A DNA stretch of 64,000 nucleotides from a virus. Each line of letters opens with the position of its first letter. Positions within the stretch are counted from its first letter, which is position 1. The stretch covers positions 12,312 to 76,311 of IMG/VR virus record IMGVR_UViG_3300045999_002371. The stretch is one strand, 5' to 3'. Shown here in pieces: positions 45,929 to 60,893 of the stretch. A model generated the notes under the pieces. That model had not been told where the DNA came from. It saw only the letters and a program-made list of their open reading frames with translations, and did not search any database. The position numbers and the translations under genes are program-made.

Positions 45929-46086
45929 TACTTCTTCTTCTTTTTGGCCATGCCTGCTTCGCTCATTGCAATAGCGACAGCCTGCTTCTTTGACTTTACT
46001 ACTGGACCCTTTTTAGATCCGCTATGAAGTTTGCCTTCTTTATACTCTTTCATAACTTTTTCTACTTTACCTTTTTTAACCGCCAT
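45928..46086 (-). CDS. 52-aa Lys-rich microprotein (DUF6496-like; not in ORF track)
   Basis: MAVKKGKVEKVMKEYKEGKLHSGSKKGPVVKSKKQAVAIAMSEAGMAKKKKK; GGAGG RBS. Confidence 0.8.
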   Translation of the reverse strand: MAVKKGKVEKVMKEYKEGKLHSGSKKGPVVKSKKQAVAIAMSEAGMAKKKKK

Positions 46087-46208
46087 TAACTATCCTCCCA
46101 ATCAAGGTCTTCCTCGTCTAAGGCGTGCTTGTCATAGTCGAGGTCATCCAAGTCTACCTCTTCATCCTCAAAGAGCGAAGGGTCTAACTCTGTCTCAAAG
46201 TCATCCAT
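46086..46208 (-). CDS. 40-aa hyperacidic microprotein (not in ORF track)
   Basis: MDDFETELDPSLFEDEEVDLDDLDYDKHALDEEDLDWEDS (21 of 40 residues D/E); AGGGAG RBS. Confidence 0.7.
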   Translation of the reverse strand: MDDFETELDPSLFEDEEVDLDDLDYDKHALDEEDLDWEDS

Positions 46209-46229
46209 GATCTCTCCCTATCTTTCGTA

Positions 46230-47456
46230 CTAGCCTAAGAACACCACTGCAGACAACCAAGCAGAAGCCTCATGTGGAATAACTCCTCCACTAGTGCCGA
46301 TGGTTATGTACGAAGCATCAGATGTTCCATATTTCTGCACTAACACCACATGATCTACTGACGGTCTGTAACCTGTAGGTAGAGTAAAAGCCACAGTCTC
46401 ACCTGTTCCTCCACTTACGTTTCCACGTAAGAACACTACGTCGTTTAATTTACGGTAGGCAACATTGTTTCCAACAAAACTATTATCAAAAGAATTTACT
46501 GAAACCCAACCACTGTCAGATACGGCAGCCTCAGCACCCTGAACCCCCTGTGTACCTTGTGTCCCTGTAGTTCCTTGGGCGCCATCTGTACCTTGTGTGC
46601 CTTGAGTTCCCTCTCCAGTTGCTCCTTGGGTTCCTTCAGCGCCTTGAGAACCGCTTGTACCCTGCGTACCTTCTGTACCCTGAGTACCAGCGCCCGTTGC
46701 TCCTTGAGAACCAACTGCACCCTGTGTTCCAAGTGTTCCTTGAGCACCATTTGCTCCTTGTGTACCTTGAGTTCCTGCACCAGTTGCTCCTTGAGTACCA
46801 AGTGTTCCTTGAGAACCAGTGGCTCCTTGAACTCCTTGAACAGAAGCGCCCTGAGTACCTTGAGTTCCTTGAGCCTGTGCAAATCCTGCACCAGCAGTTC
46901 CTTGCGTTCCTTGCACACCACGGTTTCCTTGTACGCCTTGAGTTCCCTGTGCTCCTACATCTCCGTCTACACCTTTTGTACCTTGTGAGCCTTGTGTGCC
47001 TTGGGCTCCAAGACGCCCCTGTGCTCCTTGTGCTCCTTCAGTACCACGAGAACCTTGCACACCTTGAGTACCTTGAGCACCATCTACCGCAGCAGTCCCT
47101 TGTGCACCACGAGTTCCTTGTGCACCACTTGATCCTGCTGAACCTTGAACACCTTGCGAACCGCGAGTTCCTTGTGTACCTTGCGTTCCGTTATCGCCAT
47201 CAACACCTTGTGCACCAGCACGACCCTGCACACCTTGCGTGCCGTTAGTTCCGTTAGAGCCACCAGTACCTTGGGCACCAGTTGCACCACGAGATCCTTG
47301 AACTCCAGTACGACCCTGTACGCCCTGCGTGCCTTGTGATCCTTCAAGACCGTCATTGGTCTCGATGCTCTGAACACGGCTGTTGAGATCTTGTAGAGAT
47401 GCATTGAGAGTTGTATCCCAATTTGCTTGGCCCCTAGTAGGTAGAGTGAATGTCAT
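46230..47456 (-). CDS. collagen-like fibre protein with C-terminal receptor-binding-type domain
   Basis: LP..GQ..W...LN N-terminus, long G-x-Q triplet run, C-terminal DSGW...YRK...V.LRG...FTLP.GYRP. Confidence 0.8.
   Translation of the reverse strand: MTFTLPTRGQANWDTTLNASLQDLNSRVQSIETNDGLEGSQGTQGVQGRTGVQGSRGATGAQGTGGSNGTNGTQGVQGRAGAQGVDGDNGTQGTQGTRGSQGVQGSAGSSGAQGTRGAQGTAAVDGAQGTQGVQGSRGTEGAQGAQGRLGAQGTQGSQGTKGVDGDVGAQGTQGVQGNRGVQGTQGTAGAGFAQAQGTQGTQGASVQGVQGATGSQGTLGTQGATGAGTQGTQGANGAQGTLGTQGAVGSQGATGAGTQGTEGTQGTSGSQGAEGTQGATGEGTQGTQGTDGAQGTTGTQGTQGVQGAEAAVSDSGWVSVNSFDNSFVGNNVAYRKLNDVVFLRGNVSGGTGETVAFTLPTGYRPSVDHVVLVQKYGTSDASYITIGTSGGVIPHEASAWLSAVVFLG
46530..47340 (-). repeat. 9-nt periodic coding repeat (G-x-Q collagen triplets)
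   Basis: Recurrent ccttg/ccctg every 9 nt on the plus strand. Confidence 0.85.
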
Positions 47457-47471
47457 GAGAGATTACCTTTC

Positions 47472-48077
47472 TTACGAGCCATACTCACCAGTGCCATAAC
47501 CATCAAACCCATAGTTATTATTGGTGTTGATAGTTGCAGCAGTCTGGTATGGGATTGATTGAAATTGCGGATCATTAACGAGTTCTTCAGCATTGACCTG
47601 ATTGCAATCGATAGTGACGACTGAATAGCGCTCTTTGTAGAGACCACGAGGAAGGACACGGGTAGGAACGAACACGGTGTCATGAAATACGACACGGTCT
47701 TTAATGTGTAACGCTGGATCTGTGATCATTGCTGGAAGAAGTCTATTGATATCTGCTACAGCAACTACTAAGCGCAATGTATCCGTGGTGTAGTAACCGC
47801 GCTCATTCATGATGTTAGTGCCACGAAGTTGTTGGGCCATAATTACAGGGAGTTTGAATGGCTCAGTCCAGCGGCGACCCTTACCCTCTTCCTGGTTAGA
47901 GACGTCGTAGATGGGATCAACAAAGATGTCGTAATCTGCAGCCAGGGCTTCGGCATCCCAGAGCCACCAGTCCACCTCAGTACCTACGGGGTCACGAAGT
48001 TCGTCAACGATGCCTTCATCCATTGACATAGTTTCGTAGTCGATCTTAAACCGACCCTGCACCTTGTTACCACGCAT
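47472..48077 (-). CDS. head closure / neck protein (T4 gp14-like position)
   Basis: DPIYDV.....GRRW..P, DR.VF....F; likely leaderless start MRGNK at 48077. Confidence 0.5.
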   Translation of the reverse strand: MRGNKVQGRFKIDYETMSMDEGIVDELRDPVGTEVDWWLWDAEALAADYDIFVDPIYDVSNQEEGKGRRWTEPFKLPVIMAQQLRGTNIMNERGYYTTDTLRLVVAVADINRLLPAMITDPALHIKDRVVFHDTVFVPTRVLPRGLYKERYSVVTIDCNQVNAEELVNDPQFQSIPYQTAATINTNNNYGFDGYGTGEYGS

Positions 48078-48183
48078 AGTAAGATTATCTCTTATCAAAC
48101 ATAAAACTGTACCCTATACCCTTTACCATAGTGTATAGTTTGATAGTCCAAGACTTTAGAGACAATGGCAGGAGTTTATTATT

Positions 48184-48357
48184 ATGGCAGTTTATACAGT
48201 GGGTTTTTGGGCCCTTACTCTTACGGGCACTAAAGGTGACAAAATTAACTCTTTTTCAGGAGAGTTTGAGTCTGAACTGGAAGCATTGGAAAGTCTGAAT
48301 GATGCCTTCCGTGAAGAGTATGATGGCAACTTTATAAGTGAGATTGAAGTACTCTAA
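48184..48357 (+). CDS. 57-aa acidic hypothetical protein (not in ORF track)
   Basis: MAVYTVGFWALTLTG...ISEIEVL with AGGAG RBS. Confidence 0.55.
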   Translation: MAVYTVGFWALTLTGTKGDKINSFSGEFESELEALESLNDAFREEYDGNFISEIEVL

Positions 48358-48380
48358 CCAGTCACTAGGGGGCAGCAGTA

Positions 48381-49106
48381 GTGCGTGTATTTAGAAGTAA
48401 AACTTTTTTTGTTCGACCTGACGTAGGAGTACCTGAGGCGTACCCAGTTGTTTCTTCGTACAAGGTTATCCCAGAATGGTTTAAACGTCTTTCTCCATAC
48501 ATGGCTATTGGTGGGGGCAGTGTTCTCACTAGGGGATTGCAATTAGGAGGTGGGGGGCCAAACCTCACAGTAAAGAAGTGTGTCCCATTTTTAGACGCAC
48601 TCAGTACTGGTTACATGATCTGTGCTAATGCGGATGTTCAAGTTGTTATTGAGAACGGGGAACAGCAGTTTAAGTGGACAGCCTTCAGTACTTTTGTTAC
48701 TTCTCATATCCCTGGTCAACTTGGAGAGTTCACAGTCCCTGAAACCTATAGTAAACAACCTTGGAAATGGATGAACCCGTGGTTTGTTCAAACTCCTCCA
48801 GGATATAGTTGCTTGATAACTCACCCCCTAAATAGACCTGATCTTCCTTTTTACACTTTTAGTGGAGTTATTGACACAGACAGCCATGATATAAACATTA
48901 ATCTTCCTTTTATTTTAAAAAAAGATTGGGAAGGAATAATTGAAAGGGGAACTCCACTTGCACAAGTTTTTCCTTTTAAGAGAGATGACTGGAAATTAGA
49001 GACTGGGTTAGCCTACGAACATGACAGACATTTACGAGTTCATAAAACGACTATTCACTCTCGCTATAAGAAGTTATTTTGGTCAAAAAAGGTTTACTCT
49101 AGTTAA
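48381..49106 (+). CDS. conserved phage protein (DUF6065-like)
   Basis: IPEWFK, TVKKC.PFLDA...GY, KW.NPW..QTPPGYS.L.THP.NR.DLPF....GVIDTD, I..GTPLAQV.PFKR..W. Confidence 0.7.
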   Translation: MRVFRSKTFFVRPDVGVPEAYPVVSSYKVIPEWFKRLSPYMAIGGGSVLTRGLQLGGGGPNLTVKKCVPFLDALSTGYMICANADVQVVIENGEQQFKWTAFSTFVTSHIPGQLGEFTVPETYSKQPWKWMNPWFVQTPPGYSCLITHPLNRPDLPFYTFSGVIDTDSHDININLPFILKKDWEGIIERGTPLAQVFPFKRDDWKLETGLAYEHDRHLRVHKTTIHSRYKKLFWSKKVYSS

Positions 49107-49860
49107 ACGCTTTTCTAGTCCATGCGTTCCTTTTGTACCAACCATGTAAAGTGCTTCGTGCTTTTTGACGTGAACGAGCGCTCTCTTCATATAGGTTCGG
49201 GTTTAATTCTGCTTTCCACTCTTCTCTCTTAAAGGGGAAAACCTGCGCTATTGGAGTCCCTGCAGGGATTACTCCATAAAAATCTTTTTTAATAAAAACA
49301 GGGAAATTTCCACCACTTGTAAACTTGTCATTATCTATAACCCCTGTAACGGTTACGAATGGCAAATCAAATCTGTTTATAGGGTGGGTGTACAAAGCGC
49401 TATATCCTGCGGGTAGTTTGACTGCCCACGGAACTCTCCACGCCAAGTGTGTGTCGGCACACCCCATGGGTATAGGAAGTGTTGGGTTTAGATTTTGATC
49501 TCGAACTTCTACAGGCGCTAACGTTCCTGTCCAACTTAACTTAGATTTGGTTTCTTCTTCTGGGTCAACAGTTATCCAGATGTCTGTCCAAAGCGTAATG
49601 GTGTACCCCAAAGTAATTCCGTCAAAAAATGAAATACAACTTTTGAATCCTAAATCTGGAAGAAAGGACTCTTTTCTGGGGTCAAAACGATTGCTCGTAC
49701 GAAAAAAAGTAGCGTCTTTATACCAATCAGGAAGAAAGTTTTTTGCAGGAGAGGGAGGATCTAGTTGTGACAACTCTAGGCGTTGATCAGATAAAGTAGC
49801 ACCTGTAGCACAAAACTCAATCTTTTTTGTAGAGGAGTTTTGCTTCAAGAAGTTTTTCAT
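49099..49860 (-). CDS. paralog of 48381..49106 (DUF6065-like)
   Basis: LPDWYK, KSC..F.D....GY, PW...LP.GYS.L.THP.NR.DLPF....GVID.D, GTPIAQV.PFKR..W. Confidence 0.7.
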   Translation of the reverse strand: MKNFLKQNSSTKKIEFCATGATLSDQRLELSQLDPPSPAKNFLPDWYKDATFFRTSNRFDPRKESFLPDLGFKSCISFFDGITLGYTITLWTDIWITVDPEEETKSKLSWTGTLAPVEVRDQNLNPTLPIPMGCADTHLAWRVPWAVKLPAGYSALYTHPINRFDLPFVTVTGVIDNDKFTSGGNFPVFIKKDFYGVIPAGTPIAQVFPFKREEWKAELNPNLYEESARSRQKARSTLHGWYKRNAWTRKAFN

Positions 49861-50650
49861 CTATTCTCCAGTTTGTATAGGTTACCTTGTTATTGGGGTC
49901 TTTCAGAACCGTTTCATACGCCTGTAAAAACAACAGATCGCCTTCTTCTGGAGTAGATACTATGCTCTCTGTTATAGGGATGTCAACACCGTAGGTCTCT
50001 TGTAACTTTGTCAGAGTGTCAACACTCAACACATTTTTCCAAAAACCTGTATACCCATTACCCATAGGAGTTAATGCTTTTTTTACAGTTTTTTCTTTTT
50101 CTTCTAGTTCCACTGGGGTTCCTACTAGCCTAGTCAATAAAGCAAGTTCTTTACTCCTCGTTTCAGCGTCCTTAGAGGTTAGTGCGTCGTAGTTAACCAC
50201 AGGAAAATGTTTTTTCCACAAATTAAAGTTGTAGTAAAAAAAGAAAAAAGACTTTACTTGTAAAGAAGCAACAAATTCTGAAGAATTTATAGGTACATCT
50301 ACCTTGTCGAAAGCAGCGTAAGAAAGTAAGTTGTCAAGTAGATTACGCTCTACAACAAGGGTAGTGACTCCTTTTTCTGCCAGTAGAGTAGAGTGTAGAG
50401 AAGAAATCCCTTCTTCAGGCACTACTTTTCCGTCTTGTAGTCCAACAAAAGGTGCATTGTAAAAAGGGTGAGCGCCCACAACGTACTCAGAATAACGTGT
50501 AGGAAGAGGTGTGCTCCCCAACGAATACGGCAAGTAATATGGGAGGGCTAAACTTTTAGCAATACTTCGTACTACTAAGTGTGTTCCTGATCTAGGTATA
50601 GTTAGAACCACTATCTTAGTGGCTGGTTGCTCCATGTTATTGCTCCTCAT
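49817..50650 (-). CDS. PAPS-dependent sulfotransferase
   Basis: 5'-PSB loop TIPRSGTH, 3'-PB ERNLLDNLLS, C-terminal GYTGFWKN matching the GxxGxWK motif. Confidence 0.78.
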   Translation of the reverse strand: MRSNNMEQPATKIVVLTIPRSGTHLVVRSIAKSLALPYYLPYSLGSTPLPTRYSEYVVGAHPFYNAPFVGLQDGKVVPEEGISSLHSTLLAEKGVTTLVVERNLLDNLLSYAAFDKVDVPINSSEFVASLQVKSFFFFYYNFNLWKKHFPVVNYDALTSKDAETRSKELALLTRLVGTPVELEEKEKTVKKALTPMGNGYTGFWKNVLSVDTLTKLQETYGVDIPITESIVSTPEEGDLLFLQAYETVLKDPNNKVTYTNWRIDEKLLEAKLLYKKD

Positions 50651-50662
50651 TACTCCTAATGA

Positions 50663-50953
50663 TTAGGGAAGTTCAGTTGGGTATGGTTCAATAGGGACGA
50701 TCCAAGTTAACAGGATCTCATCCCAACCTAAAGAATCTTCTGGTTCTGGTCTTCGAAATATCTCACCAAAAAAGTCACCACCTATGAAAGCATGCCCAGT
50801 CTCCTCTGTCTGTAAAACCACAGAGTCTGCGGCCTCACTTTCCAGGAACACGTGCTTAAGTTCTACAGGTAGTGGTTCTTTAAAGTACAAGACATTCTTA
50901 ACAAAGTTATTCTCATCTAAAAAAGCGTAGTAATACTCATCATTAGTTACCAT
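50663..50953 (-). CDS. small acidic fibre-associated protein (possible assembly chaperone)
   Basis: YAFLDENN.V.NV, A.IGG....F..P.P....W....W; follows a glycine-rich fibre gene. Confidence 0.55.
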   Translation of the reverse strand: MVTNDEYYYAFLDENNFVKNVLYFKEPLPVELKHVFLESEAADSVVLQTEETGHAFIGGDFFGEIFRRPEPEDSLGWDEILLTWIVPIEPYPTELP

Positions 50954-52404
50954 GATATGTACACACTTCCGTTATTTCCAGCCGTTGCGGCAACTCTAGG
51001 AGCAGAGGGGCCTTGACCTGAGCCATAACCACCATTACCACCATTAGGTCCCCCACCTGGAGCAGTTGCAGGGCTGAAGTTGTTTGCAGCAGTAGATCCT
51101 GGAGGCGCTCCGCCACCACCTGCTCCGTTACCGAATGCACCAGTTGCACCAGCACCACCGCCACCGCCACTAGTTAATGGGGTTCCGTTGATTCCTGTAG
51201 TGCCTCCCGAACCTCCAGGAGTTGAATTAGGAGCAAAAGAGCCATAACCTGCGGCTGAACCGCCACCGCCACCTCCACCAACGCTTAGGCTGATGCTAGT
51301 GTTCTGTGGGACAGACTGAGTAGAACTGCCTGTGTATCCAGCACCGCCACCTCCACCTGCGCCTGGCCATGAGTTAGAAGATGGCTTTCCAGATCCTCCA
51401 CCGCCACCTCCTCCTCCACGGTTAGAGTAGGAGACCGTCGTTACTCCTAGAGGAATAAAGGCTGTAGTTGTAGATGCAGCAAAAGCAGAGCCTGATGCAT
51501 AAGGCACCATTGCGTTACTTGTTCCAGAGGTAGCAGATGTTCCATTAGCGTTTACCGCAACAACAGTTCCTGTAAAACTTGTAGTTGTAGTTAGCCCTGA
51601 GAAGGACACTGTTCCTGACCCCGTGTTAGTGGCATTTCCACCATTTGCATAACCTGTGTAAGTGCTAATCGCTTTACCGCCAGTAGCACCTGCTGTAAAG
51701 GTAAGGTTTGCAGTTCCTGACCCTGTTCGTGAGAAAGTACCGATTGTAGGTGCTTGAGGAACTGTGGTTGCAGTAATGGCGTCAGAAGCAGTGGATGCAA
51801 TCGAAGTTCCAATACTGTTAGTTGCTGTAACTGTAAATGTGTAAGAGGTGTTTGATGCAAGACCTGTTACAGTCAATGGTGAGGAAGCACCAGTTGCAGT
51901 AAAGTTTCCTGGACTTGAAGTCACTGTGTAAGAGGTGATAGTAGCACCATTTGCAGATGGTGGCGAGAAGGACACTGTTGCAGCACCGTTGTTAAACGCA
52001 CGGCTAGTTCCAACGTCAACTGCAGTAGGCTTAGCGACCTGTGAAGGAGCAGCAGCAGAAGCGGTAATTGAATTACTTGTTGCGCTTACTGGAGAACTTG
52101 TTCCACTTGCGTTACTTGCTGTCATTGTAAAGGTGTATGAGGTTCCTGGGATTAGGTCTACAACTGTCAAAGGTGAAGTCGAACCACTAGCCGTAAACCC
52201 ACCAGACGTTGATGCAACCTGGTAAGAGGTAGCAACACCTCCAGTTGCTGCTGGTGTAAACGGGATAGTTGCAACTGTGTATGCAACAGTTACAGTACCA
52301 ATAGTTGGAGAGTCTGGAACATCTTGCTTAAATGTATTTGCCGCTTGAGCAACGGTGTACTTTACTCCCGTTAATCCTGAGGTTAATGCCCTTCTAATTG
52401 CCAT
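50947..52404 (-). CDS. fibronectin type III repeat and glycine-rich domain structural protein
   Basis: Three FN3-like repeats (SPLTV..L...TSYTFT.TA.N..G), C-terminal GGGGG-rich domain. Confidence 0.8.
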   Translation of the reverse strand: MAIRRALTSGLTGVKYTVAQAANTFKQDVPDSPTIGTVTVAYTVATIPFTPAATGGVATSYQVASTSGGFTASGSTSPLTVVDLIPGTSYTFTMTASNASGTSSPVSATSNSITASAAAPSQVAKPTAVDVGTSRAFNNGAATVSFSPPSANGATITSYTVTSSPGNFTATGASSPLTVTGLASNTSYTFTVTATNSIGTSIASTASDAITATTVPQAPTIGTFSRTGSGTANLTFTAGATGGKAISTYTGYANGGNATNTGSGTVSFSGLTTTTSFTGTVVAVNANGTSATSGTSNAMVPYASGSAFAASTTTAFIPLGVTTVSYSNRGGGGGGGGSGKPSSNSWPGAGGGGGAGYTGSSTQSVPQNTSISLSVGGGGGGGSAAGYGSFAPNSTPGGSGGTTGINGTPLTSGGGGGAGATGAFGNGAGGGGAPPGSTAANNFSPATAPGGGPNGGNGGYGSGQGPSAPRVAATAGNNGSVYISW

Positions 52405-52733
52405 TAAGCGATCTCACTTCCGAATGCTGAGATTGATAGGTTTGCTGTTGAAGTGTATACCGAGATCACATCGGTTGCTGCAAGTGTGATTCCGAGAGTC
52501 AGTAGCGTGGAGTCGTTAGCAGCAACAGTTGCCCCATAAACAAGGTAGTGCTTTGCTTCTGCAGTTGCACCTGCTGGTCTAACAGCAATTCTGTAGGTAG
52601 CACTTGTCGCAGCCTGGTTGCAGATTGCGATAGTGGAAACCACAGCCTCAGTTGCTGAAGGCACTGTGTAAAGTGTGGTAAGAGTAGTTGCTGAAGGGTT
52701 TGATTGCCCTAGCACCTTATATGTCGTTGCCAT
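52404..52733 (-). CDS. small virion structural protein
   Basis: YKVLGQ..P.ATT.T.LYTVP, all-beta composition, FGSEI end; AAGGAG RBS. Confidence 0.65.
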   Translation of the reverse strand: MATTYKVLGQSNPSATTLTTLYTVPSATEAVVSTIAICNQAATSATYRIAVRPAGATAEAKHYLVYGATVAANDSTLLTLGITLAATDVISVYTSTANLSISAFGSEIA

Positions 52734-52792
52734 GAGACTCCTTAAAAGAATAAGTAGGACTAGGTTAACTGGTACATAAAACCTATGTGGGC

Positions 52793-52798
52793 TAAAGT
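52793..52798 (+). promoter_or_regulatory. -10 element of a putative leaderless promoter for the glycan-tailoring operon
   Basis: TAAAGT exactly 6 nt before the ATG at 52805; no SD sequence. Confidence 0.5.
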
Positions 52799-52804
52799 GT
52801 CCCT

Positions 52805-53806
52805 ATGAATTTGGTGCATAAAGCGGTTTCTCAGGGCGGAAAATTAGCGCCCCTTATTTTACCTCATAGCCTTACCTCTGGTATGGGCTTAATGAATCCC
52901 TCAATTTTTATTGACAATGATGGGGATATCCTGGTCAATATCAGGCATGTGAATTACACCTTGTATCACTCAGAGCATGATCAGCGGTTCTTTAGCCCTT
53001 GGGGTCCCTTGTCCTACCTACACCCTGAAAGAGACCAACGACTAGTTACGACCAACTACCTCTGCCGTCTTGATAAGGACCTCAACATCATCAACTACAC
53101 AAAGGTGGATTACTCAGCACTTGACGTCCCACCTATTTGGGAGTTTGTTGGAGAAGAAGACTGCCGCATCACTCAGTGGGATGGAAACTACTACCTGATC
53201 GGTGTTCGTCGTGACACCACACCTAACGGTCAGGGTCGCATGGAGTACTCCAAGATTGAGTTAGACAAAACTAACTGGACAGCCAAAGAGGTGCAGCGAG
53301 TTCGCATACCGCCTCCTATCGATGTGAACTCATACTGCGAAAAGAACTGGATGCCTATCCTTGATAAGCCGTATCACTTTGTGAAGTGGGCTATGCCTAC
53401 TGAGGTTGTTAAGGCTAATCCTGATAAGTCCGAGTGTGAGCAGGTACTGGTAAAACAAACACCTTCTGTTCCTATTGATCAACGTGGTGGTACTAACATT
53501 GTTTCTTGGGGCGATTACTACATCGCATTTACTCACGAAGTAAAGTTGTGGCGTAACTACCTCAACCAGAAAGACTCTATCTATCGTCACCGAATGATCG
53601 TGTGGGACAAGGAGTTTAACTTTGTTGGTCTAACTAAATCGTTTGCATTCTTAGATACGCCAATTGAGTTCTGTGTAGGAGCCGCTGTTCGTAACGGCAA
53701 ACTACTGCTAAGTTTTGGCGTGCAAGATAATGCGGCCTTTGTACTAGAGATACCAAAGAAGGTTGTAAATGGCTTAGTTACGGAGGCGATGGCATATGGG
53801 AATTAA
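52805..53806 (+). CDS. five-bladed beta-propeller glycosidase/phosphorylase-like protein (GH130-like)
   Basis: NPSI, GEEDCRI, EKNWMP, RGG, IEFC.G, SFG.QD. Confidence 0.65.
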   Translation: MNLVHKAVSQGGKLAPLILPHSLTSGMGLMNPSIFIDNDGDILVNIRHVNYTLYHSEHDQRFFSPWGPLSYLHPERDQRLVTTNYLCRLDKDLNIINYTKVDYSALDVPPIWEFVGEEDCRITQWDGNYYLIGVRRDTTPNGQGRMEYSKIELDKTNWTAKEVQRVRIPPPIDVNSYCEKNWMPILDKPYHFVKWAMPTEVVKANPDKSECEQVLVKQTPSVPIDQRGGTNIVSWGDYYIAFTHEVKLWRNYLNQKDSIYRHRMIVWDKEFNFVGLTKSFAFLDTPIEFCVGAAVRNGKLLLSFGVQDNAAFVLEIPKKVVNGLVTEAMAYGN

Positions 53807-54356
53807 AGAGATAACAATCGCTCTTGCTGAAAAGCCTGAGGATGTACAACTTAACTTCGATCTTGCCGAGGCCTACGATGCAGAGAAGCAATACGCATCT
53901 GCTGCAGGGTTCTACTTGAGAGCCGCTGAATACGGCCACAAGACCCATCCTCTTATTGCATATGCATCCCTGTTAAAAATGGCGTTGTGCTGGTCTTACC
54001 AAGGCGATCGTAATAAGACTGTGTACAACAACCTCATGCAGGCTGTTGCGTACTTACCTAACCGACCAGAGGCATACTTCTTATTGTCCCGTATTCACGA
54101 ACGCAACAAGGAGTACCAGCAGTGCTATACCTATGCGGAGATGGGTTTGCTCTATGCAACTACTACCTTCCACAACCCACTGCCAGCACATGTTGACTAC
54201 CACGGCTCATACTGCTTGATGTTTGAGAAGGCTGTAGCAGGTTGGTGGTTAGGCCGCAAAGAAGAGAGTAAAGTTCTATTCCAGCATCTACTCGATGATC
54301 ACCAGATGGCACCAGAGTATGTAAGCGGTTGCCTCAATAATATGAAGTTGTTCTAA
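53796..54356 (+). CDS. tetratricopeptide-repeat protein
   Basis: LA..Y......A...YLRAAE, A...LP.RPEAYFLLS helical repeats. Confidence 0.75.
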   Translation: MGIKEITIALAEKPEDVQLNFDLAEAYDAEKQYASAAGFYLRAAEYGHKTHPLIAYASLLKMALCWSYQGDRNKTVYNNLMQAVAYLPNRPEAYFLLSRIHERNKEYQQCYTYAEMGLLYATTTFHNPLPAHVDYHGSYCLMFEKAVAGWWLGRKEESKVLFQHLLDDHQMAPEYVSGCLNNMKLF

Positions 54357-54357
54357 T

Positions 54358-54888
54358 ATGTTTCCTAATTGGTTTAAAGATGTAGAGAAGTACTTCCGTC
54401 ATGTGCCCAATGTGCCACTTCGTGCATTACAGATCGGCACCTATACAGGCGATGCCACAGAGTGGCTGATGGACAACTGCGAGATCGAGTACCTCGATGA
54501 TGTCGACACCTGGGAGGGAAGTGAAGAGAAGGCACATGATCAGATTGACTTCACCTCTGTCGAGGACTACTACGACTCACGGTTTAAAGACCCACGCATT
54601 ACCAAACACAAGATGACTAGCGATGAGTTCTTCAATCGTCCATCTCGTACATATAACTTCATCTATATTGATGGCGATCACACAGCGCTACAGACCGCTC
54701 TGGATGGACTTAATGCCTTCAAACTCCTTGAGAAGGGTGGCGTGATGGCATTTGATGACTACCTATGGAACTACAACGGAGACCGCTTCCTAGAGCCTAA
54801 GAGGGGCGTAGACGGCTTCCTAGAGGTATGTAAGGACCAGTACACAGTCATTGAATCTGGATATCAGTTGTGGATTGAGAAGTGCTAG
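54358..54888 (+). CDS. class I SAM-dependent methyltransferase (sugar O-methyltransferase-like)
   Basis: LQIGTYTG, VDTW.GS.E, FIYIDGDH, LL..GGVMAFDDY. Confidence 0.85.
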   Translation: MFPNWFKDVEKYFRHVPNVPLRALQIGTYTGDATEWLMDNCEIEYLDDVDTWEGSEEKAHDQIDFTSVEDYYDSRFKDPRITKHKMTSDEFFNRPSRTYNFIYIDGDHTALQTALDGLNAFKLLEKGGVMAFDDYLWNYNGDRFLEPKRGVDGFLEVCKDQYTVIESGYQLWIEKC

Positions 54889-55613
54889 ATAACGCCTGCT
54901 ATGAAGTCTTTCATACGGATACTGGAAATAACTTACGTAATAAATCCTATGAAGGAATTGTAGAGGCGCTCTCTTTCTTGCCTCGTCTGGGTTCGCCCAC
55001 AATGTACTTGAACACAGCAGATAAGGCTGAGGCGTTTGTTAATCAGACACCTGGCTTTAAGGTCAACACAGTCCATGACTACTGCCAACCAGGTGAGACA
55101 TTCCCACCATCTGCTGGAGTTGTTGGGGTGTGGGCTAGTAACTACCTTGCTTATAAGAAGTTCTTAGAGACAGATTACGACACTCTAATCATCTTTGAAG
55201 ATGACATCTTGGTGAGCAAGAACTTTAAAGAGATTGTCACCATGTACATGCAGGAGTTAATGCCCATCTGGGACTTCTTCTCATTCTTTGTTCCAGATGA
55301 TTCCCTGTTTGCCTACAACGAGGCAGCGCATGATCTTGGTGAGGAGTACACCTGCCGCTCATACCAGCAGTGGTCGTGTGCAGGGTATGCAGTCAGTCGC
55401 AAGGGTGCACAACGAGCAGTTGAGGATGTGGAATTACGAGGCATCAACTGCCCAGTTGATTGGTACATCTTTAATTTCCGCATGAAGAAGGAAGAAGATC
55501 AGATGACCTTCAATACCTTCACAGTAAAGCCTGGTGTATACCGCCCCATTAAGTTCTTACAAGAGGCAGCACAAGTCAGCCAGATACATCGGGGTAGTAC
55601 AGAACTGCTTTAG
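54882..55613 (+). CDS. glycosyltransferase family 25-like
   Basis: G..G.WAS, LIIFEDD, GYAVS.KGA, PVDW. Confidence 0.78.
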   Translation: MLDNACYEVFHTDTGNNLRNKSYEGIVEALSFLPRLGSPTMYLNTADKAEAFVNQTPGFKVNTVHDYCQPGETFPPSAGVVGVWASNYLAYKKFLETDYDTLIIFEDDILVSKNFKEIVTMYMQELMPIWDFFSFFVPDDSLFAYNEAAHDLGEEYTCRSYQQWSCAGYAVSRKGAQRAVEDVELRGINCPVDWYIFNFRMKKEEDQMTFNTFTVKPGVYRPIKFLQEAAQVSQIHRGSTELL

Positions 55614-55614
55614 G

Positions 55615-56907
55615 CTACATTCCACCAAGCATAAGTACGTCTGCAACAGTTGCACTTCCTGACGGCGAAGTACCTGCAGTACCCTGAGTTCCACCAGTTC
55701 CCTGTGTACCTTGAGCACCGACTGTACCTTGAGTACCAATACCAGTTGTACCTTGTACGCCCTGTGTTCCTTCAGTTCCTTGTGCGCCTACAGCACCTTG
55801 TGTGCCTACAGTTCCCTGTGTTCCGTCAGTTCCTTGTGAGCCTACTGTGCCCTGGGCACCTACTGCACCCTGTGCACCTTCGGTTCCTTGAGTTCCTGCA
55901 GTTCCCTGAACACCAGTATCACCCTTATCACCCGTACGAGCAAATGTGATTACGATGTCATCTGAGTTAGATAGTGTTCCGTTACCAGATACGTAAGAGC
56001 AGTTAACTGTAAACCAGCCAGTGTTATCTGTAAGAGAACCAATTGTGTAGAGTTTAAATACGCTGTCATCAAACTTCTTAGAGACACGGAAGTGTCCTTT
56101 AATAGTTGATGTGGAATCATCGATTGTGTTTAAGAATGTTGAGAGATCTGTTGCAGCATCATCACTTGCATCGATGTACATAGCAGTTGCTGTTGTAGGA
56201 GAGGCATTGAAACGAAGGTTGCCTGCACCTGGATCAGCCTCTGTTGTTGTTGTACTGAAGGTGTAATCAAATGAAGCGCCACCGAAATTACCCGCAGAAC
56301 CCTGTACACCTAGAAGACCTTGTACACCCTGAGTTCCCTGTGTTCCTTGAGTTCCCTGGGTACCTTGAGTTCCTTGGGTGCCTTGGGTTCCTTGTGTACC
56401 GACAGTTCCTTGGCTACCTAGGGTTCCTTGTGTACCTTGTGTACCCTGAACACCCTCAGTACCTTGAGAACCTACCGCACCCTGAGTTCCTAGGGTTCCT
56501 TGAGATCCTTCGGTTCCTTGTGAGCCTACTGTGCCCTGGGCACCAGTAGTTCCCTGAACTGTAGGTACTGATACATCGATACCTTGTACTGCGGCGTTGT
56601 AAGAGAAAGTGATGTTGCTTAGTGTTCCAGCATTTAGAATTGTGCTTAATGTTGACGCAGTTAAGTACTTGTTAAGGGCACCTTCTGTAAGGTCATCGGT
56701 AGTACTTAATTCACTGGCGCTGATCAGGCTTGCGATACCGTCTTCATCAAGGAAGTAAGGAAGATCGCTGTAGACAGTAGATCCACCTACACCCACCTTG
56801 AACTTGCCAGTGTTGGTTTCAAAACCAATCTCACCAGCAGCAAGGACGGGGTCTGAGGTATCCCATTGAGTAGCAGTTCCACGGCGTACTTGGATTCTAA
56901 TTGCCAT
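55615..56907 (-). CDS. collagen-like fibre protein with Mtd/hyaluronidase-type N-terminal anchor
   Basis: IQVRRGTA.QW....PVLA.GEIGFET.TGKFKVG; G-x-Q triplets flanking one globular insert. Confidence 0.8.
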   Translation of the reverse strand: MAIRIQVRRGTATQWDTSDPVLAAGEIGFETNTGKFKVGVGGSTVYSDLPYFLDEDGIASLISASELSTTDDLTEGALNKYLTASTLSTILNAGTLSNITFSYNAAVQGIDVSVPTVQGTTGAQGTVGSQGTEGSQGTLGTQGAVGSQGTEGVQGTQGTQGTLGSQGTVGTQGTQGTQGTQGTQGTQGTQGTQGVQGLLGVQGSAGNFGGASFDYTFSTTTTEADPGAGNLRFNASPTTATAMYIDASDDAATDLSTFLNTIDDSTSTIKGHFRVSKKFDDSVFKLYTIGSLTDNTGWFTVNCSYVSGNGTLSNSDDIVITFARTGDKGDTGVQGTAGTQGTEGAQGAVGAQGTVGSQGTDGTQGTVGTQGAVGAQGTEGTQGVQGTTGIGTQGTVGAQGTQGTGGTQGTAGTSPSGSATVADVLMLGGM

Positions 56908-57170
56908 TAAGCGTTTCCTCCATCGAAGGTTGTTTCAAAGTCAGTAGTATCTGCAAGTCCACCATCAAGATCACTTGGTTGTGCTGAACCAACAATTCCA
57001 CCATCTTCTGTTACTGGTTGAATATTCGGCAAAAATTCTAGCCAACTTACTCCGTTGTATACGAAGAAACTCTGGCTAATAGAGTTAAAGTAGACGTCAC
57101 CATCGTACCGTCCAGCAGGTTCTATGTTGCTGGACAGTACGTTGATAGGGACGAGTGCTTTTTTGCTCAT
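56907..57170 (-). CDS. small structural protein
   Basis: GDVYFN......VY.G..W and DGG motifs typical of fibre proteins. Confidence 0.6.
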   Translation of the reverse strand: MSKKALVPINVLSSNIEPAGRYDGDVYFNSISQSFFVYNGVSWLEFLPNIQPVTEDGGIVGSAQPSDLDGGLADTTDFETTFDGGNA

Positions 57171-57173
57171 GTG

Positions 57174-60100
57174 TTACGCCTTGACTACCACTCTGTATGA
57201 CTGAGATGTGAGTGGAGCGACTGCAAATCCGACTGTGACTGTGGATGTTGTTACGTACACGACATCAGTTACAACTTCAGCCTTTGATGCGGTATCCCAG
57301 ACTGTGACCATGATGTCTGTAGTACCTAGGCTGTGTGTAATTGTGAACTGTGTAGTTCCAGTTGCTCCACCGTCTGTAGAGGTTCCAGTAATAGTTGTTG
57401 CGTAGGTTCCTAGTTGACCAGAAGTACCTTGTGCACCTTCTGTACCTTGGGCTCCAAGTGTTCCTTGGGTACCAACAGTTCCTTGAGCGCCTTCAGTGCC
57501 TTGGGCACCTTCAGTTCCCTGAGTACCAAGAGTACCTTGGGCTCCTTCGGTACCTTGGGCTCCTACAGTTCCCTGTACTCCTTGAGCACCAGTTGTACCT
57601 TGTACACCAGTAGCACCATCAAGGTTGATAGACCAAGAAGAATACTCTCCTGAACCTCTAACGTCATTGACGTCTACAACGAGTGTGTTAGTTCCTGCTG
57701 TGTAACTGACTACAGTTGCAGACATGTTGTTGTTTACATCGTAAGCAACTACTACATCTTGACCAACTGAGTATGAGAGATCAGCATCTGCTAATACAAA
57801 ACTTACGTTGTTTGCTACTGCAATCGAACGTGTTGTAGAAGAGGTTGTCTTGTAACGGTCTGAGTGTCCTTCAGTACCCTGAGAACCCTCGATACCTTGG
57901 GCGCCTTCAGTTCCCTGTGCACCCTCCGTACCTTGAGATCCTTCGGTTCCCTGAGTTCCCTCAGTACCTTGAGTACCTTCAGTACCTTGGGCGCCTTCAG
58001 TACCCTGTGCACCGACAGTGCCCTGTGTGCCTTCAGTACCTTGGGAACCAACTGTTCCTTGAACACCCTTAGGTAAGTAGAGGTCCCAATCAGCAGGGGT
58101 GCTAACTGGATCACCTAGTTCGCCGTTTGAAGTTGCGATGTATAGGTTTCCGTCAGAGCCAGATACAACAGCAACTCCGCTGGTGTAACCGTTTCCACTG
58201 ATGAAGTTACCTAAGTAAACAAAACCAGTTCCAGTTGCTCCTAGTGTTCCTTGAGCACCTTCTGTACCTTGAGCACCCTCTGTACCCTGTGTACCTTCAG
58301 ACCCTTGTACGCCTTGCGTACCTTCAGATCCTTGTACGCCCTGTACACCTTCGATACCCTGAGCACCTTCGGTGCCTTGAGTTCCTTGGGCTCCGAGTGT
58401 TCCTTGAGTTCCCTGAGTTCCCTCAGTACCTTGAACGCCCTGGGCTCCTTCAGTACCTTGTGTACCCTGAGCACCGACGTCACCAGTACGAGCAAATGTG
58501 AAGAGAAGTTCGTCTCCGTCAGTAAATGTTCCGTTACCAGATACGTAAGCAACTTCTACATCAAACCAACTAGTGCTATCTGTAACACCCGAAATTGTGT
58601 AGAGTGCAAAAGTAGCAGTATCAAATTTTCTAGATACCTTTACGTGACCCTTGATGGTAGATGTTGAATCATCAATAGTAGTTAAGAAGTTAGAGACGTC
58701 ATAGTTACCATCAGCAGGATTATCATCCAGTGCCAGGTGTGTAACTAGAGTCGGATTAGCATTGTTAAAACGAGCATTGTTGTCGCCTGGGTCTGACATT
58801 GTTGTGCCATCATCGTAGTTGTAGGCAACTGTGATACCACCGAAGTTACCTTCAGCACCCTGTAGACCTTGCTGACCTTCTAGGCCTTGCGCTCCCTCAG
58901 TACCCTGAGTTCCTTGAGCGCCTTCTGCTCCTTGGGTTCCCTGAGTACCTTCAGTACCTTGTACTCCCTGAGTACCTTCGGTTCCCTGTGTGCCTTGAGT
59001 TCCCTCAGATCCTTGGACTCCTTGAGTTCCATCAGTTCCTTGAGTGCCCTGTGCACCTTCGGTGCCTTGTGCTCCTTCAGTTCCTTGTGTACCCTCAGTT
59101 CCTTGAGCACCAGTTGTTCCTTGAGAACCTTGTGCAGCAATTAATGTCCAGTAAGTTCCTTCTGCAGGAGTGTCTCCAGTGTTGCCACCGTGAGCGTCGA
59201 TGCGGTACCAAGTCTGGCCGTTGTATGTGGCTACATCTCCAATTGCATACGCATTTCCGCCACCGTAAGCACCTGTAAAGTTCCAAAGGGCTGCTGTACC
59301 TTGAGTACCTTGAGAGCCCTCTGTACCTTGTGCACCTTCAGTTCCTTGCGCTCCTTCAGTACCTTGAGCACCAGTAGTACCGTCGGTACCCTGAGCACCA
59401 GTCGCACCTTCAGTTCCTTGAGCACCAGTAGTACCCTGAGTACCCTGAGCACCCACATCTCCTGTACGAGCAAATGTTAGAAGAACATCGTCTTCATCTG
59501 TGAAAGAACCAGAACCAGACAAGTATGTAATGTCAACATCAAAGTATGTAGCGTTATCAACCATTGAGTTGATCGCATACATAGCAAATACTGCACTATT
59601 TGATTTAAGCGAAATCTTTAGGTGACCCTTAACTGTTGAAGTAGAGTCATCAATTGTTTGTAGGTATGGGTGGATGTCTACGGATGCAGCATTTACGTCA
59701 TCAATTGCAAGATGTGTTGCAGAGGCTGCCGCAGCATTAAGGCGGATGTATGTATCGCCTGGGTCTGCCATCGTTGTTGATGAGTCATAGTTGTACTCAA
59801 AAGTTACACCACCGAATGAACCTTCAGCACCTTGTGTACCTTGCGATCCTTCTAATCCTTGTGCACCCTCAATACCTTGGGCGCCTTCAGTTCCTTGCGC
59901 TCCTTCAGTTCCTTGCGTTCCATTGGAACCGTCTAGACCTTGTGCACCGTCTGTACCTTGTGCACCTTCGGTGCCCTGCGCTCCTTCAGTACCCTGAGCA
60001 CCTTCGGTACCTTGCGTACCGTTAGATCCATCAAGACCTTGTGCACCGTCTGTACCTTGAGTACCTTGCGAACCTTCAGTTCCTTGAGTTCCATTTGCAC

Positions 60101-60344
60101 CATCAAGACCCTGTGCACCAGCAGTACCTTGCGTACCCTGTGCTCCAGTAGTTCCTTGTGTGCCTTGGCTTGCGTTGATCCACGCAGTGCCGTTCCATGT
60201 CTTTACAACCTTATCGTCAGTGTCATAGTAAATCTGACCTTCGACTGGGTTGGCTGGCTTATTGACTGTAGCGAGGTTCTGAATACGGGCATTCTGAAGT
60301 TCAAGTTTGCCTAAATCAATCGGGGTTAAAAACTTACGGGCCAC
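57174..60344 (-). CDS. long collagen-like fibre protein with interspersed globular domains
   Basis: 1056 aa; GTQ/GTE/GAQ triplet blocks separated by globular inserts; C-terminal ITHSLGT.D..V domain. Confidence 0.85.
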   Translation of the reverse strand: MARKFLTPIDLGKLELQNARIQNLATVNKPANPVEGQIYYDTDDKVVKTWNGTAWINASQGTQGTTGAQGTQGTAGAQGLDGANGTQGTEGSQGTQGTDGAQGLDGSNGTQGTEGAQGTEGAQGTEGAQGTDGAQGLDGSNGTQGTEGAQGTEGAQGIEGAQGLEGSQGTQGAEGSFGGVTFEYNYDSSTTMADPGDTYIRLNAAAASATHLAIDDVNAASVDIHPYLQTIDDSTSTVKGHLKISLKSNSAVFAMYAINSMVDNATYFDVDITYLSGSGSFTDEDDVLLTFARTGDVGAQGTQGTTGAQGTEGATGAQGTDGTTGAQGTEGAQGTEGAQGTEGSQGTQGTAALWNFTGAYGGGNAYAIGDVATYNGQTWYRIDAHGGNTGDTPAEGTYWTLIAAQGSQGTTGAQGTEGTQGTEGAQGTEGAQGTQGTDGTQGVQGSEGTQGTQGTEGTQGVQGTEGTQGTQGAEGAQGTQGTEGAQGLEGQQGLQGAEGNFGGITVAYNYDDGTTMSDPGDNNARFNNANPTLVTHLALDDNPADGNYDVSNFLTTIDDSTSTIKGHVKVSRKFDTATFALYTISGVTDSTSWFDVEVAYVSGNGTFTDGDELLFTFARTGDVGAQGTQGTEGAQGVQGTEGTQGTQGTLGAQGTQGTEGAQGIEGVQGVQGSEGTQGVQGSEGTQGTEGAQGTEGAQGTLGATGTGFVYLGNFISGNGYTSGVAVVSGSDGNLYIATSNGELGDPVSTPADWDLYLPKGVQGTVGSQGTEGTQGTVGAQGTEGAQGTEGTQGTEGTQGTEGSQGTEGAQGTEGAQGIEGSQGTEGHSDRYKTTSSTTRSIAVANNVSFVLADADLSYSVGQDVVVAYDVNNNMSATVVSYTAGTNTLVVDVNDVRGSGEYSSWSINLDGATGVQGTTGAQGVQGTVGAQGTEGAQGTLGTQGTEGAQGTEGAQGTVGTQGTLGAQGTEGAQGTSGQLGTYATTITGTSTDGGATGTTQFTITHSLGTTDIMVTVWDTASKAEVVTDVVYVTTSTVTVGFAVAPLTSQSYRVVVKA

Positions 60345-60356
60345 GGTCTATCTCCT

Positions 60357-60893
60357 TTAAGATAAGTAGGCATTACCTGAGAATGCGGATTGAAAAGAGA
60401 CCGTTAATGAGTTCGAATTAGTGTACGCAATTTCACCTTCAACAAGGTTACCAGCAGAGTCTACAACTGTAACGTTAGGCTTGAAGCCTAAATTGTGATT
60501 GATCACCCAGGAGTTGCTGGCTGATCCTTGCATGTGCTCGTGTGATACACGACCAACTGTAAAATACTTGTTTGTAGTACCTTCGACAAGGTCATCAGTG
60601 CTAGTGATATCTGAGCCACCGATACCAGGTTCACCCTGAGGTCCTTGAGGACCTGCTACACCTTGTGTGCCAGTACCAGTTGCTCCTTGGGTTCCTTGCG
60701 TACCAATTCCAGTTGTACCCTGTACGCCCTGTGTTCCTTGGGCTCCTCTAACACCTTGAGTACCCTGTGCGCCATCGGTGCCACCACCAAGGCCTGTGTT
60801 TATAAGGGTGCCTTCAGGTGTTGTGATCAGGACTACGTCATTGACTGCAATAGGAATGTTTGCAGATCCTGGACGGATGTACTGGTTTGTCAT
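60357..60893 (-). CDS. short collagen-like structural protein
   Basis: G-x-Q triplets, TDDL.EG..NKYFT, W.INHNLG..P.VTV.D. Confidence 0.75.
   Translation of the reverse strand: MTNQYIRPGSANIPIAVNDVVLITTPEGTLINTGLGGGTDGAQGTQGVRGAQGTQGVQGTTGIGTQGTQGATGTGTQGVAGPQGPQGEPGIGGSDITSTDDLVEGTTNKYFTVGRVSHEHMQGSASNSWVINHNLGFKPNVTVVDSAGNLVEGEIAYTNSNSLTVSFQSAFSGNAYLS

Follow-up and report, generated by a model that had tools for sequence, protein, structure and literature searches.

What do soluble enzymes of sugar and sulfate transfer do among the fibre genes of a phage? The question is raised by positions 46,230 to 60,893 of a 64-kb stretch of viral DNA (the window, by which the whole of this stretch is meant throughout), where four collagen-like genes and a protein with fibronectin type III (FN3) domains surround an operon of four genes for a GH130-like propeller, a tetratricopeptide repeat (TPR) protein, a methyltransferase and a GT25-family glycosyltransferase, and are accompanied by a divergent sulfotransferase. 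The window is part of a 76-kb IMG/VR virus record (IMGVR_UViG_3300045999_002371) with a CheckV completeness of ~76%. The answer proposed here, to which we give about an even chance, is that the block consists of virion appendages together with soluble cytoplasmic enzymes that most likely modify these appendages before assembly. The evidence that carries this reading is that the propeller and the TPR protein form a pair that recurs beside Thr/Gln-rich collagen-like genes in unrelated phages.

The genes of the window are of myovirus type (sheath, baseplate wedge, tape-measure-like peptidase and major head protein), and the capsid protein is 61-63% identical to those of the Streptomyces phages BRock, LuckySocke and Alone3; the window belongs to a myovirus of lake origin with BRock among its relatives. 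Positions 46000-61000 found no match when compared by megablast with deposited phages. The block has g352 at its left-hand edge and g208 (75-93% identical in relatives) at its right-hand edge. Because g352 and g208 match gp82 and gp83, and everything between them is extra, positions 48381-60893 are best described as an insertion between two conserved neck (head-to-tail) genes, which places the block in the structural module. All the open reading frames that an earlier note on this DNA had listed are present where it placed them (Table 1).

Fibre genes and the plus-strand operon

The four collagen-like genes hold 327 G-X-Y triplets in total (counted in runs of 5 or more) and, as the earlier note had described, Thr is the commonest residue at X, with Gln or Glu at Y. 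Specifically, Thr occupies X in 30 of the 83 triplets of the 408-residue protein, in 35 of 60 in the 430-residue protein, in 84 of 168 in the 1056-residue protein and in 5 of 16 in the 178-residue protein; the Pro content of the four lies at 1.0-3.9%. The shortest reaches 21.1 bits, under the Pfam Collagen cut-off of 27.2, and the other three are far above the threshold. Residues 1-70 of the 408-residue protein match the N-terminus of the LuckySocke gp84 ‘tailspike protein’, and the 1056-residue protein has six collagen runs with globular domains between them. The 430-residue fibre has an internal non-collagen domain of ~115 residues, which is found once there and twice in the 1056-residue fibre, always between collagen runs; its pattern is roughly F-G-G-x-x-F-x-Y ... 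I-D-D-S-T-S-T-[IV]-K-G-H ... F-A-R-T-G-D, and it has no Pfam match.

Judging by gene position, the collagen proteins may serve as fibres of the neck or side, and not as the primary one of the baseplate. The baseplate module lies elsewhere, at 29.5-36.4 kb, and has its own distal protein, a product of 646 residues (29502-31442, minus strand) with two CBM_4_9 carbohydrate-binding stretches; this suggests a separate candidate receptor-binding protein and that the collagen fibres are not the sole adhesins. The FN3 protein is composed of 16.9% Thr and 14.2% Ser and has a Gly-rich C-terminal domain (its counterpart in the related locus L052 shows a weak Gly_rich_2 match). It looks like a minor tail protein, and we count it as a further candidate substrate for modification.

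The operon occupies 52805-55613 on the plus strand, with gene ends that overlap or abut (53806/53796, 54356/54358 and 54888/54882), and its enzymes proved, by Pfam and by fold, to be those that had been named earlier: a GH130-like propeller, a TPR protein, an S-adenosylmethionine (SAM) methyltransferase and a GT25-like protein. The propeller matches Pfam PF04041 over residues 90-134 only, at 19.8 bits, which is below the 26-bit cut-off. Its structure model (predicted local distance difference test, pLDDT, 73; predicted template modelling score, pTM, 0.79) has as its best 30 fold matches almost exclusively GH130 phosphorylases, a mannoside synthase and the GDP-mannose mannosyltransferases of Leishmania (MTPs), at E 6e-9 and TM 0.50-0.58. 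Over 112 homologues, 63 positions are at least 97% conserved, most of them charged or polar, and they include G116-x-E-D119-x-R121; G116, E118, D119 and R121 fall within the Pfam-aligned stretch, and the Asp of this GxEDxR motif may correspond to the catalytic Asp of GH130. Because of these near-invariant positions, the propeller is better understood as an enzyme than as a scaffold, and it is proposed to be a sugar transferase (of beta-mannoside type) or phosphorylase acting on the fibres, with the TPR protein holding the substrate. The closest PDB matches of the GT25 protein are Mimivirus R655, then bacterial GT25 proteins and then human procollagen galactosyltransferase 1 (COLGALT1), and its E-D-D (DxD-type) motif, in IIFEDDILV, is aligned with LVLEDDINF of R655.

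A scan with the GT25 protein gave 80 viral loci of this lineage at 75-98% identity (the related loci), of which the 22 longest were mapped. The four operon genes are kept together in the 80 relatives, at 60-98% identity, and in all 22 of the longest the operon is intact, in the same order and with collagen genes on both sides.

The operon had also been credited with its own promoter. Its orientation requires one, but a sigma-70 consensus scan of the 71-bp gap between g109 and the propeller gene (52734-52804) was empty, so that the promoter is not confirmed; promoter-like sites were fewer overall than in shuffled sequence. The same gap contains an inverted repeat, TAGGTT-N13-AACCTA, at 52761-52785, although a 6-bp repeat may be due to chance. 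The conserved ATG of the propeller gene has no upstream Shine-Dalgarno sequence; g109 has AAGGAG. At the far end of the operon (55613-55615), the genes of the GT25 protein and of the 430-residue fibre run towards each other, and the 1 bp that separates their stop codons leaves no room for a terminator; antisense overlap of the two transcripts is therefore to be expected.

The propeller/TPR pair in other phages

Among ~50,000 deposited phage genomes, the propeller has matches in 3 records (one of these phages has been cultured), and metagenomes contain more than 4,500 homologues. It is 47% identical to genes of the cyanophages DSL-LC02 and S-SCSM2R. In the lake cyanophage DSL-LC02 (Kyanoviridae), the propeller gene is followed by a fusion of TPR, FkbM methyltransferase and radical SAM parts, to whose N-terminus the TPR protein of the window is 43% identical, and then by DUF6445, for which no PDB relative was found by sequence. 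This set lies divergently between collagen-like fibres with GTQ, GTT, GAT and GAQ as their commonest triplets. The record labels the fusion (L169:9947-12100) as an FkbM methyltransferase; it actually joins TPR, FkbM methyltransferase, radical SAM and SPASM, an unusual four-part architecture to find beside fibre genes. In S-SCSM2R, a cultured Synechococcus phage that also encodes a collagen-like protein of 978 residues, the pair comes after a gp9/10-like baseplate gene.

A scan with the cyanophage propeller recovered 80 viral loci (52-97% identity, 27-48% guanine plus cytosine (GC), 18 clusters at 70% identity), here called the GH130-type loci. A TPR homologue is found in 78 of them and starts within 200 bp of the end of the propeller gene in 65. 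A collagen-like open reading frame lies within 10 kb in 37 of the 80; in 80 control loci from non-structural regions, matched in total length, the count is 1, a contrast which partly reflects the location of the pair among fibre genes. Where at least 5 kb is available on both sides, such a reading frame lies within 5 kb in 25 of 40 loci, and in 14 loci the collagen gene is no more than 100 bp away. Most of the 37 loci have their nearest collagen gene upstream and on the same strand, and the dominant triplets near the pair are GTQ, GIQ, GTT and GAQ. Overall, the pair adjoins GTQ-type collagen genes in at least 10 of the 18 sequence clusters, in phages of very different GC content.

Methyltransf_24, present in all 80 of the related loci, is absent from all 80 GH130-type loci, where no GT25 of the window's type was found either. 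Since these loci do without the window's GT25 and Methyltransf_24, the conserved unit appears to be the propeller, the TPR protein and a GTQ-type collagen gene; the GT25 and methyltransferase genes look, from their distribution, like additions of this lineage. The co-occurrence with G-T-Q collagens that the earlier note had suggested looking for across phage genomes is thus seen for the GH130-like/TPR pair and not for the other two enzymes. The link of the pair to GTQ-type collagen genes across unrelated phages supports a glycosylation of the fibres. No literature linking the pair to collagen fibres was found, within an incomplete coverage of that literature, and the Dishui Lake phage paper does not discuss the propeller gene.

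The sulfotransferase and its sulfate supply

The second part of the question concerns sulfate. The sulfotransferase motifs described in the earlier note are real: PRSGTH, an invariant His, ERNxLDxxxS and GxxGxWK are conserved in the 10-sequence alignment A1. More specifically, the P, G and H of PRSGTH (the 5′-phosphosulfate loop, aligned with PKSGTHW of SULT7A1) are invariant in A1, as are H56 of P0001 and R97 of ERNLLDNLLS, in which L100 and S105 are at least 90% conserved; the His and ERNLLDNLLS align with ‘tH’ and RNPKDTAVS, and the W of the C-terminal GYTGFWK is invariant across the family. The 277-residue protein matches no Pfam family at E up to 0.1, searches of NCBIfam and PHROGs were also empty, and its relatives score 17-20 bits in Pfam, short of the 22-bit cut-off. 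The family profile matches PDB cytosolic sulfotransferases (E 6e-9), and the best 45 listed Foldseek matches of its AlphaFold model (pLDDT 79, pTM 0.80) are all sulfotransferases, at a moderate TM of 0.38-0.49. Judged by motifs, profile and predicted fold, it is a real, very divergent sulfotransferase of the type that uses 3′-phosphoadenosine 5′-phosphosulfate (PAPS). An exhaustive scan of 1.8 billion representatives found 11 relatives; tblastn against deposited phages gave no match, a word-indexed protein search returned only the protein itself, and, for the genomic setting of its distant relatives, scans of viral contigs (with alignment A1) and of metagenomes (with alignment A4) confirmed nothing and a look-up by cluster led to short contigs only.

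The sulfotransferase gene is adjacent to collagen and Gly-rich genes and ends a minus-strand run (g109, FN3/Gly-rich gene, g96, sulfotransferase) which starts with g109, is oriented opposite to the glycosylation operon and has overlaps or a 12-bp gap between its members. Because these genes are packed in one run, the sulfotransferase is likely made together with the g109 and FN3/Gly-rich proteins. The g96 product matched no family and has no homologue in the 80 related loci.

A candidate phage source of PAPS, a fusion of adenosine 5′-phosphosulfate (APS) kinase with an NMNAT-like nucleotidyltransferase that would make this donor, lies 22.6 kb from the sulfotransferase in the window. An acI-type actinobacterial host without assimilatory sulfate reduction would make the phage need such a source of its own. 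In two of the related loci, L052 and L057, the sulfation genes stand in one tightly packed minus-strand run of the same island, in the order g109-like gene, Gly-rich gene, 128-residue protein, phrog_7084, DUF6171, Sulfotransfer_3 (62 bits), Asp/Asn beta-hydroxylase (PF05118, 59 bits), APS-kinase fusion, 91-residue protein and g208. The fusion is 64% identical to that of the window and stands two genes from Sulfotransfer_3, which is unrelated to the window sulfotransferase that it replaces. In the overlapping gene run at L052:1992-5137 (also in L057), the DUF6171 protein has 70 residues, is Cys-rich and is encoded between phrog_7084 and Sulfotransfer_3.

Sulfotransferase-like genes are found among the 80 related loci only in L052 and L057, always with the fusion; the fusion is missing from an 87-kb relative (87% complete), whose locus showed no sulfotransferase. 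The fusion itself occurs in at least 599 viral stretches, and at least 17 of 80 fusion loci of other phages have, no more than 10 kb away, a gene that resembles one of several sulfotransferase families. Given this co-occurrence both within the lineage and in the fusion loci, there is good support for a connection of the sulfotransferase with PAPS supply. A connection of sulfate with the fibres, by comparison, is suggested in this lineage only, and by gene position only.

The beta-hydroxylase beside the sulfotransferase of L052 and L057 fits a sulfation of hydroxylated residues at least as well as a sulfation of glycan. Indeed, Iyer et al. (2010) predicted that operons of beta-hydroxylase, sulfotransferase and PAPS synthetase hydroxylate and then sulfate collagen-like or tail-collar proteins (PMC2938197). 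The block of the window has no recognisable Asp/Asn beta-hydroxylase or 2-oxoglutarate (2OG) dioxygenase; a protein of 187 residues encoded ~1.7 kb from the fusion (24145-24708, minus strand), with a weak 2OG-FeII_Oxy_3 match of 17.9 bits (below threshold), is a possible hydroxylase partner.

Beside the window sulfotransferase lie two phrog_7084 paralogues, 31% identical and placed tail to tail with an 8-bp overlap at their 3′ ends; relatives have a single copy at this position, and the family is common in phages. A PDB profile search with them gave chance-level matches only, and their Atlas matches were unnamed or DUF6065 clusters only. Their reading as 2OG dioxygenases was dropped, the family having no conserved HxD...H pattern.

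Table 1. Genes of the block, its conserved edges and the related structural and sulfate-supply genes of the window
Feature	Length (residues)	Position	Strand	Matches and remarks
Capsid protein				LuckySocke gp78 counterpart
g123				LuckySocke gp79 counterpart
g225				LuckySocke gp87 counterpart
Sheath				LuckySocke gp88 counterpart
APS-kinase/NMNAT-like nucleotidyltransferase fusion	253	26451..27212	-	APS_kinase 53.6 bits; CTP_transf_like at residues 150-186; NCBIfam apsK, NMNAT
Collagen-like fibre	408	46230..47456	-	Pfam Collagen E 7.7e-35; globular C-terminal domain
g208, conserved structural gene	208	47472..48098	-	LuckySocke gp83 homologue (tblastn E 2e-12 to L001 at the gp83 position)
phrog_7084/DUF6065-like paralogue 1		48381..49106	+	PHROG E 7e-49; DUF6065 24.2 bits, below 26.6-bit cut-off
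phrog_7084 paralogue 2		49099..49860	-	PHROG E 2.5e-36
Divergent PAPS-type sulfotransferase	277	49817-50650	-	No signal peptide; strain-specific accessory gene
g96, acidic protein	96	50663..50953	-	Between FN3 gene and sulfotransferase; specific to this strain
FN3/Gly-rich protein	485	50947..52404	-	Three fn3 stretches, E 1.4e-19; phrog_6977 ‘minor tail protein’
g109, small conserved protein	109	52404..52733	-	AAGGAG ribosome-binding site; in 50/80 relatives
GH130-like five-bladed beta-propeller	333	52805..53806	+	Weak Pfam match, fold confirmed
TPR protein	186	53796..54356	+	TPR_19 33.4 bits
Class I SAM methyltransferase, Methyltransf_24		54358..54888	+	Pfam 48.6 bits, E 1.6e-12
GT25-family glycosyltransferase		54882..55613	+	Glyco_transf_25 (PF01755) 40.4 bits against a 24-bit cut-off, residues 79-193
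Collagen-like fibre	430	55615..56907	-	Collagen E 1.6e-23; Mtd_N-type N-terminus E 5.6e-13
Protein resembling fibre N-terminus	87	56907..57170	-	In 55/80 relatives
Large collagen-like fibre	1056	57174..60344	-	Collagen E 1.3e-67, 9 Pfam stretches
Short collagen-like protein	178	60357..60893	-	Pfam Collagen E 2.7e-4
g352, conserved structural gene	352	60890..61948	-	LuckySocke gp82 homologue (tblastn E 1.7e-34); phrog_1084 at C-terminus

Weighing the readings, and known systems

From this arrangement we infer the fibres to be the substrate, along with a sugar chemistry and an order of steps. The TPR protein would bind the still-unfolded, extended G-T-Q chain, for which the peptide-binding domain of collagen prolyl 4-hydroxylase, which is TPR-like, offers an analogy; a recognition of the triple helix, as formerly suggested, is also plausible, its one basis being that 78 of the 80 GH130-type loci have retained the TPR gene beside that of the propeller. 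The propeller would transfer a first hexose, of beta-mannoside type, to exposed hydroxyls, probably those of Thr at X. In this lineage, the GT25 protein would then extend the glycan and Methyltransf_24 would cap it with a methyl group, and the strain-specific sulfotransferase, fed by the APS-kinase fusion, would add sulfate, either to the glycan or to a Ser, Thr, Tyr or hydroxylated residue of the fibre or of the Gly-rich protein.

As far as can be judged from the genes, the fibres are probably chemically decorated. The earlier note had interpreted the block as building a methylated and sulfated glycan coat; the enzyme identities, the virion-module position, the link between the pair and collagen genes and the co-occurrence of sulfotransferase and fusion bear it out in part, and the placement of the sulfate on the glycan is the part that finds no support. 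A wider claim, held here only tentatively and unlikely to be right in full, would be that the fibres are sulfated through a miniature phage PAPS synthase and the sulfotransferase, making this the first sulfated phage virion, and that aquatic phages infecting cyanobacteria, actinobacteria and other hosts widely use the GH130-like/TPR pair, as a so far unrecognised system, to glycosylate collagen-like fibres rich in Thr and Gln.

Several observations weigh against fibre modification. Synteny within one lineage is shared ancestry, which tells that the operon was kept and gives no reason for it. The operon lies on the strand opposite to the fibre genes and is thus not co-transcribed with them in this phage, and the block showed no genes for making nucleotide sugars. 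Of the GH130-type loci with at least 5 kb to either side, about 40% lack a collagen gene in that range, and the only collagen gene of S-SCSM2R is ~8 kb from the pair. As for sulfation, the APS_kinase match covers residues 2-84, about half of the domain, and the 277-residue sulfotransferase is absent from all 80 related loci, where ~13 of the 22 mapped ones span both sides of its position. Finally, the fusion usually neighbours 2OG-Fe(II) oxygenases (of prolyl 4-hydroxylase type), beta-hydroxylases, a Trp halogenase, the PF11397 GlcNAc transferase and a nuclease, and has a collagen gene nearby in 1 of the 80 loci of other phages, which suggests an island for modification in general or for metabolites; the co-occurrence that the earlier note had suggested looking for between sulfotransferase, CysC-type kinase and collagens ties the first two to each other within the lineage and does not extend to collagen genes around the fusion. 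The fusion loci (L088-L167) resemble the cyanophage dioxygenase/halogenase arrays described in 2010, for which Iyer et al. proposed secondary metabolites as products (PMC2938197).

Such islands, with their metabolite-type halogenases and oxygenases, are one reason to consider that the enzymes are auxiliary genes acting on host glycans or small molecules, and that their position in a fibre island reflects recombination only. This is a minority possibility, but a substantial one. The propeller, GT25 protein and methyltransferase would in that case remodel wall or surface glycans of the host, e.g. for superinfection exclusion or in preparation of lysis, and the product of the sulfotransferase and fusion would be a sulfated metabolite or a sulfated polymer of the host. 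Published readings of the propeller homologue point the same way: it carries a bare ‘beta-mannosyltransferase’ label, and the authors of S-SCSM2R read it as an auxiliary gene of cell-wall synthesis or modification, the first in a cyanophage (PMC12801897). Hypervariable islands over tail fibre/collagen-like genes are, moreover, found in isolated phages of ‘Ca. Nanopelagicales’ (PMC10202952). The stretch between g208 and g109 is likewise strongly variable among relatives of the window. Soluble phage glycosyltransferases that alter wall teichoic acid are also known, an example being TarP of a Staphylococcus aureus prophage. However, a host target does not explain why the pair should be found near GTQ-type collagen genes in so many clusters, often within 100 bp; the four-gene operon is invariant beside collagen genes in all relatives examined, and membrane or export components are not present.

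It is improbable that the TPR protein is a chaperone for folding or trimerisation of the fibres, with the GH130-like protein as an accessory that binds or degrades glycans at adsorption (for instance as a depolymerase or as a partner in receptor binding). Phage fibres often need a dedicated chaperone encoded beside them, TPR proteins are commonly chaperones, GH130 enzymes are mostly catabolic phosphorylases or hydrolases, and the pair does stand beside fibre and baseplate genes. Yet the propeller has neither an N-terminal anchor nor a fibre-like domain, the GT25 protein and methyltransferase of the operon have no chaperone role, and in the cyanophages the TPR module shares one polypeptide with methyltransferase and radical SAM parts, or with DUF6445, which is an enzyme context; moreover, MGP is not one of the virion proteins named in the main text of the S-SCSM2R paper (PMC12801897).

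Very improbable is a block of unrelated mobile genes in a permissive gap with no shared pathway (or, as a minor version, for DNA modification): the sulfotransferase and g96 are indeed confined to this strain, the operon is oriented unlike its neighbours and ‘DNA methyltransferase’ and ‘glucosyltransferase’ are among the PHROG labels of what the methyltransferase and the GT25 protein matched, but the four genes are translationally coupled and have stayed together in all 80 relatives, the presence of a sulfotransferase tracks the APS-kinase fusion, and the block is far from replication genes. DNA modification was rejected as a main reading, because the block lies among structural genes and no action on DNA is known for a GH130 fold.

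The preferred reading, enzymes that modify the fibres, would matter because phage fibres set host range and are the first contact for grazers, enzymes and antibodies. If it is true, sequence-based prediction of host range and structural models of fibres miss a chemical layer in abundant phages of lakes and oceans, and glycosylated Thr could explain the stability of proline-free collagen helices. The GH130-like/TPR pair provides a concrete and testable marker. Likewise, a phage PAPS supply with sulfotransferases would add sulfation to viral protein chemistry and give an experimental footing to the 2010 prediction of hydroxylated, sulfated prokaryotic collagen-like proteins.

Known systems resemble the block in different parts. 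The propeller shares with GH130 phosphorylases and Leishmania mannosyltransferases (5b0p, 4udg, 6q4x) the five-bladed fold, a GxEDxR-type motif and conserved basic residues; known GH130 members, however, act on oligosaccharides rather than proteins and have no fixed TPR partner, and the propeller of the window stays below the Pfam threshold. Giant viruses glycosylate their fibrils, as with the R655 gene cluster of Mimivirus and its collagen hydroxylase/glucosyltransferase L230 (reviewed in PMC9614988). As may be the case here, Mimivirus glycosyltransferases decorate fibrils independently of the host, in virions that also contain collagen-like proteins, but the host is eukaryotic, the virion architecture is another one, no sulfation is described, and L230 acts on hydroxylysine, whereas the fibre repeats of the window have almost no Lys.

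Thr-rich bacterial collagen repeats that are O-glycosylated by a glycosyltransferase are found in Bacillus BclA, where the glycan contains methylated sugars and the glycosyltransferase gene adjoins the fibre gene, and in the collagen-like BclA3 of Clostridioides difficile, glycosylated by SgtA (PMC7157674). BclA repeats are G-P-T, with Thr at Y, as opposed to G-T-Q/G-T-E with Thr at X and almost no Pro in the window, and in both BclA and BclA3 the setting is a cell and not a virus, with enzymes of other families. The operons of Iyer et al. (PMC2938197) are matched by the single run of sulfotransferase, PAPS source, beta-hydroxylase and Gly-rich/collagen-like protein in the relative L052, and share its logic, a structural protein that is hydroxylated and then sulfated. 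They are, however, bacterial and predicted, whereas the module here stands in a phage virion-gene cluster with a glycosylation operon; and where they have a beta-hydroxylase, the window has two phrog_7084/DUF6065 proteins instead.

The nearest phage parallel is that of the mycobacteriophages (Che8, Corndog/Cluster O), in which three phage-encoded glycosyltransferases glycosylate capsid and tail tube and an O-methyltransferase is encoded alongside (Freeman 2023, as presented in PMC11600133). The likeness, to the extent of that presentation, lies in an actinobacteriophage, in soluble glycosyltransferases with an O-methyltransferase and in a virion protein as target; here, too, GH130-like, GT25 and Methyltransf_24 genes stand in one coupled operon. 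The mycobacteriophage substrates presented there are C-terminal extensions of capsid and tail-tube subunits, whereas those of the window would, from the genes alone, be collagen-like fibres, and the enzymes presented there are of other families, with no GH130-like propeller, TPR partner or sulfotransferase among them. The earlier note knew of no characterised phage pathway for virion sulfation, and such sulfation is established nowhere; virion glycosylation is established in these mycobacteriophages. What the window adds is therefore a variant of virion and collagen glycosylation, itself already known, and with it the more novel possibility of a sulfated virion.

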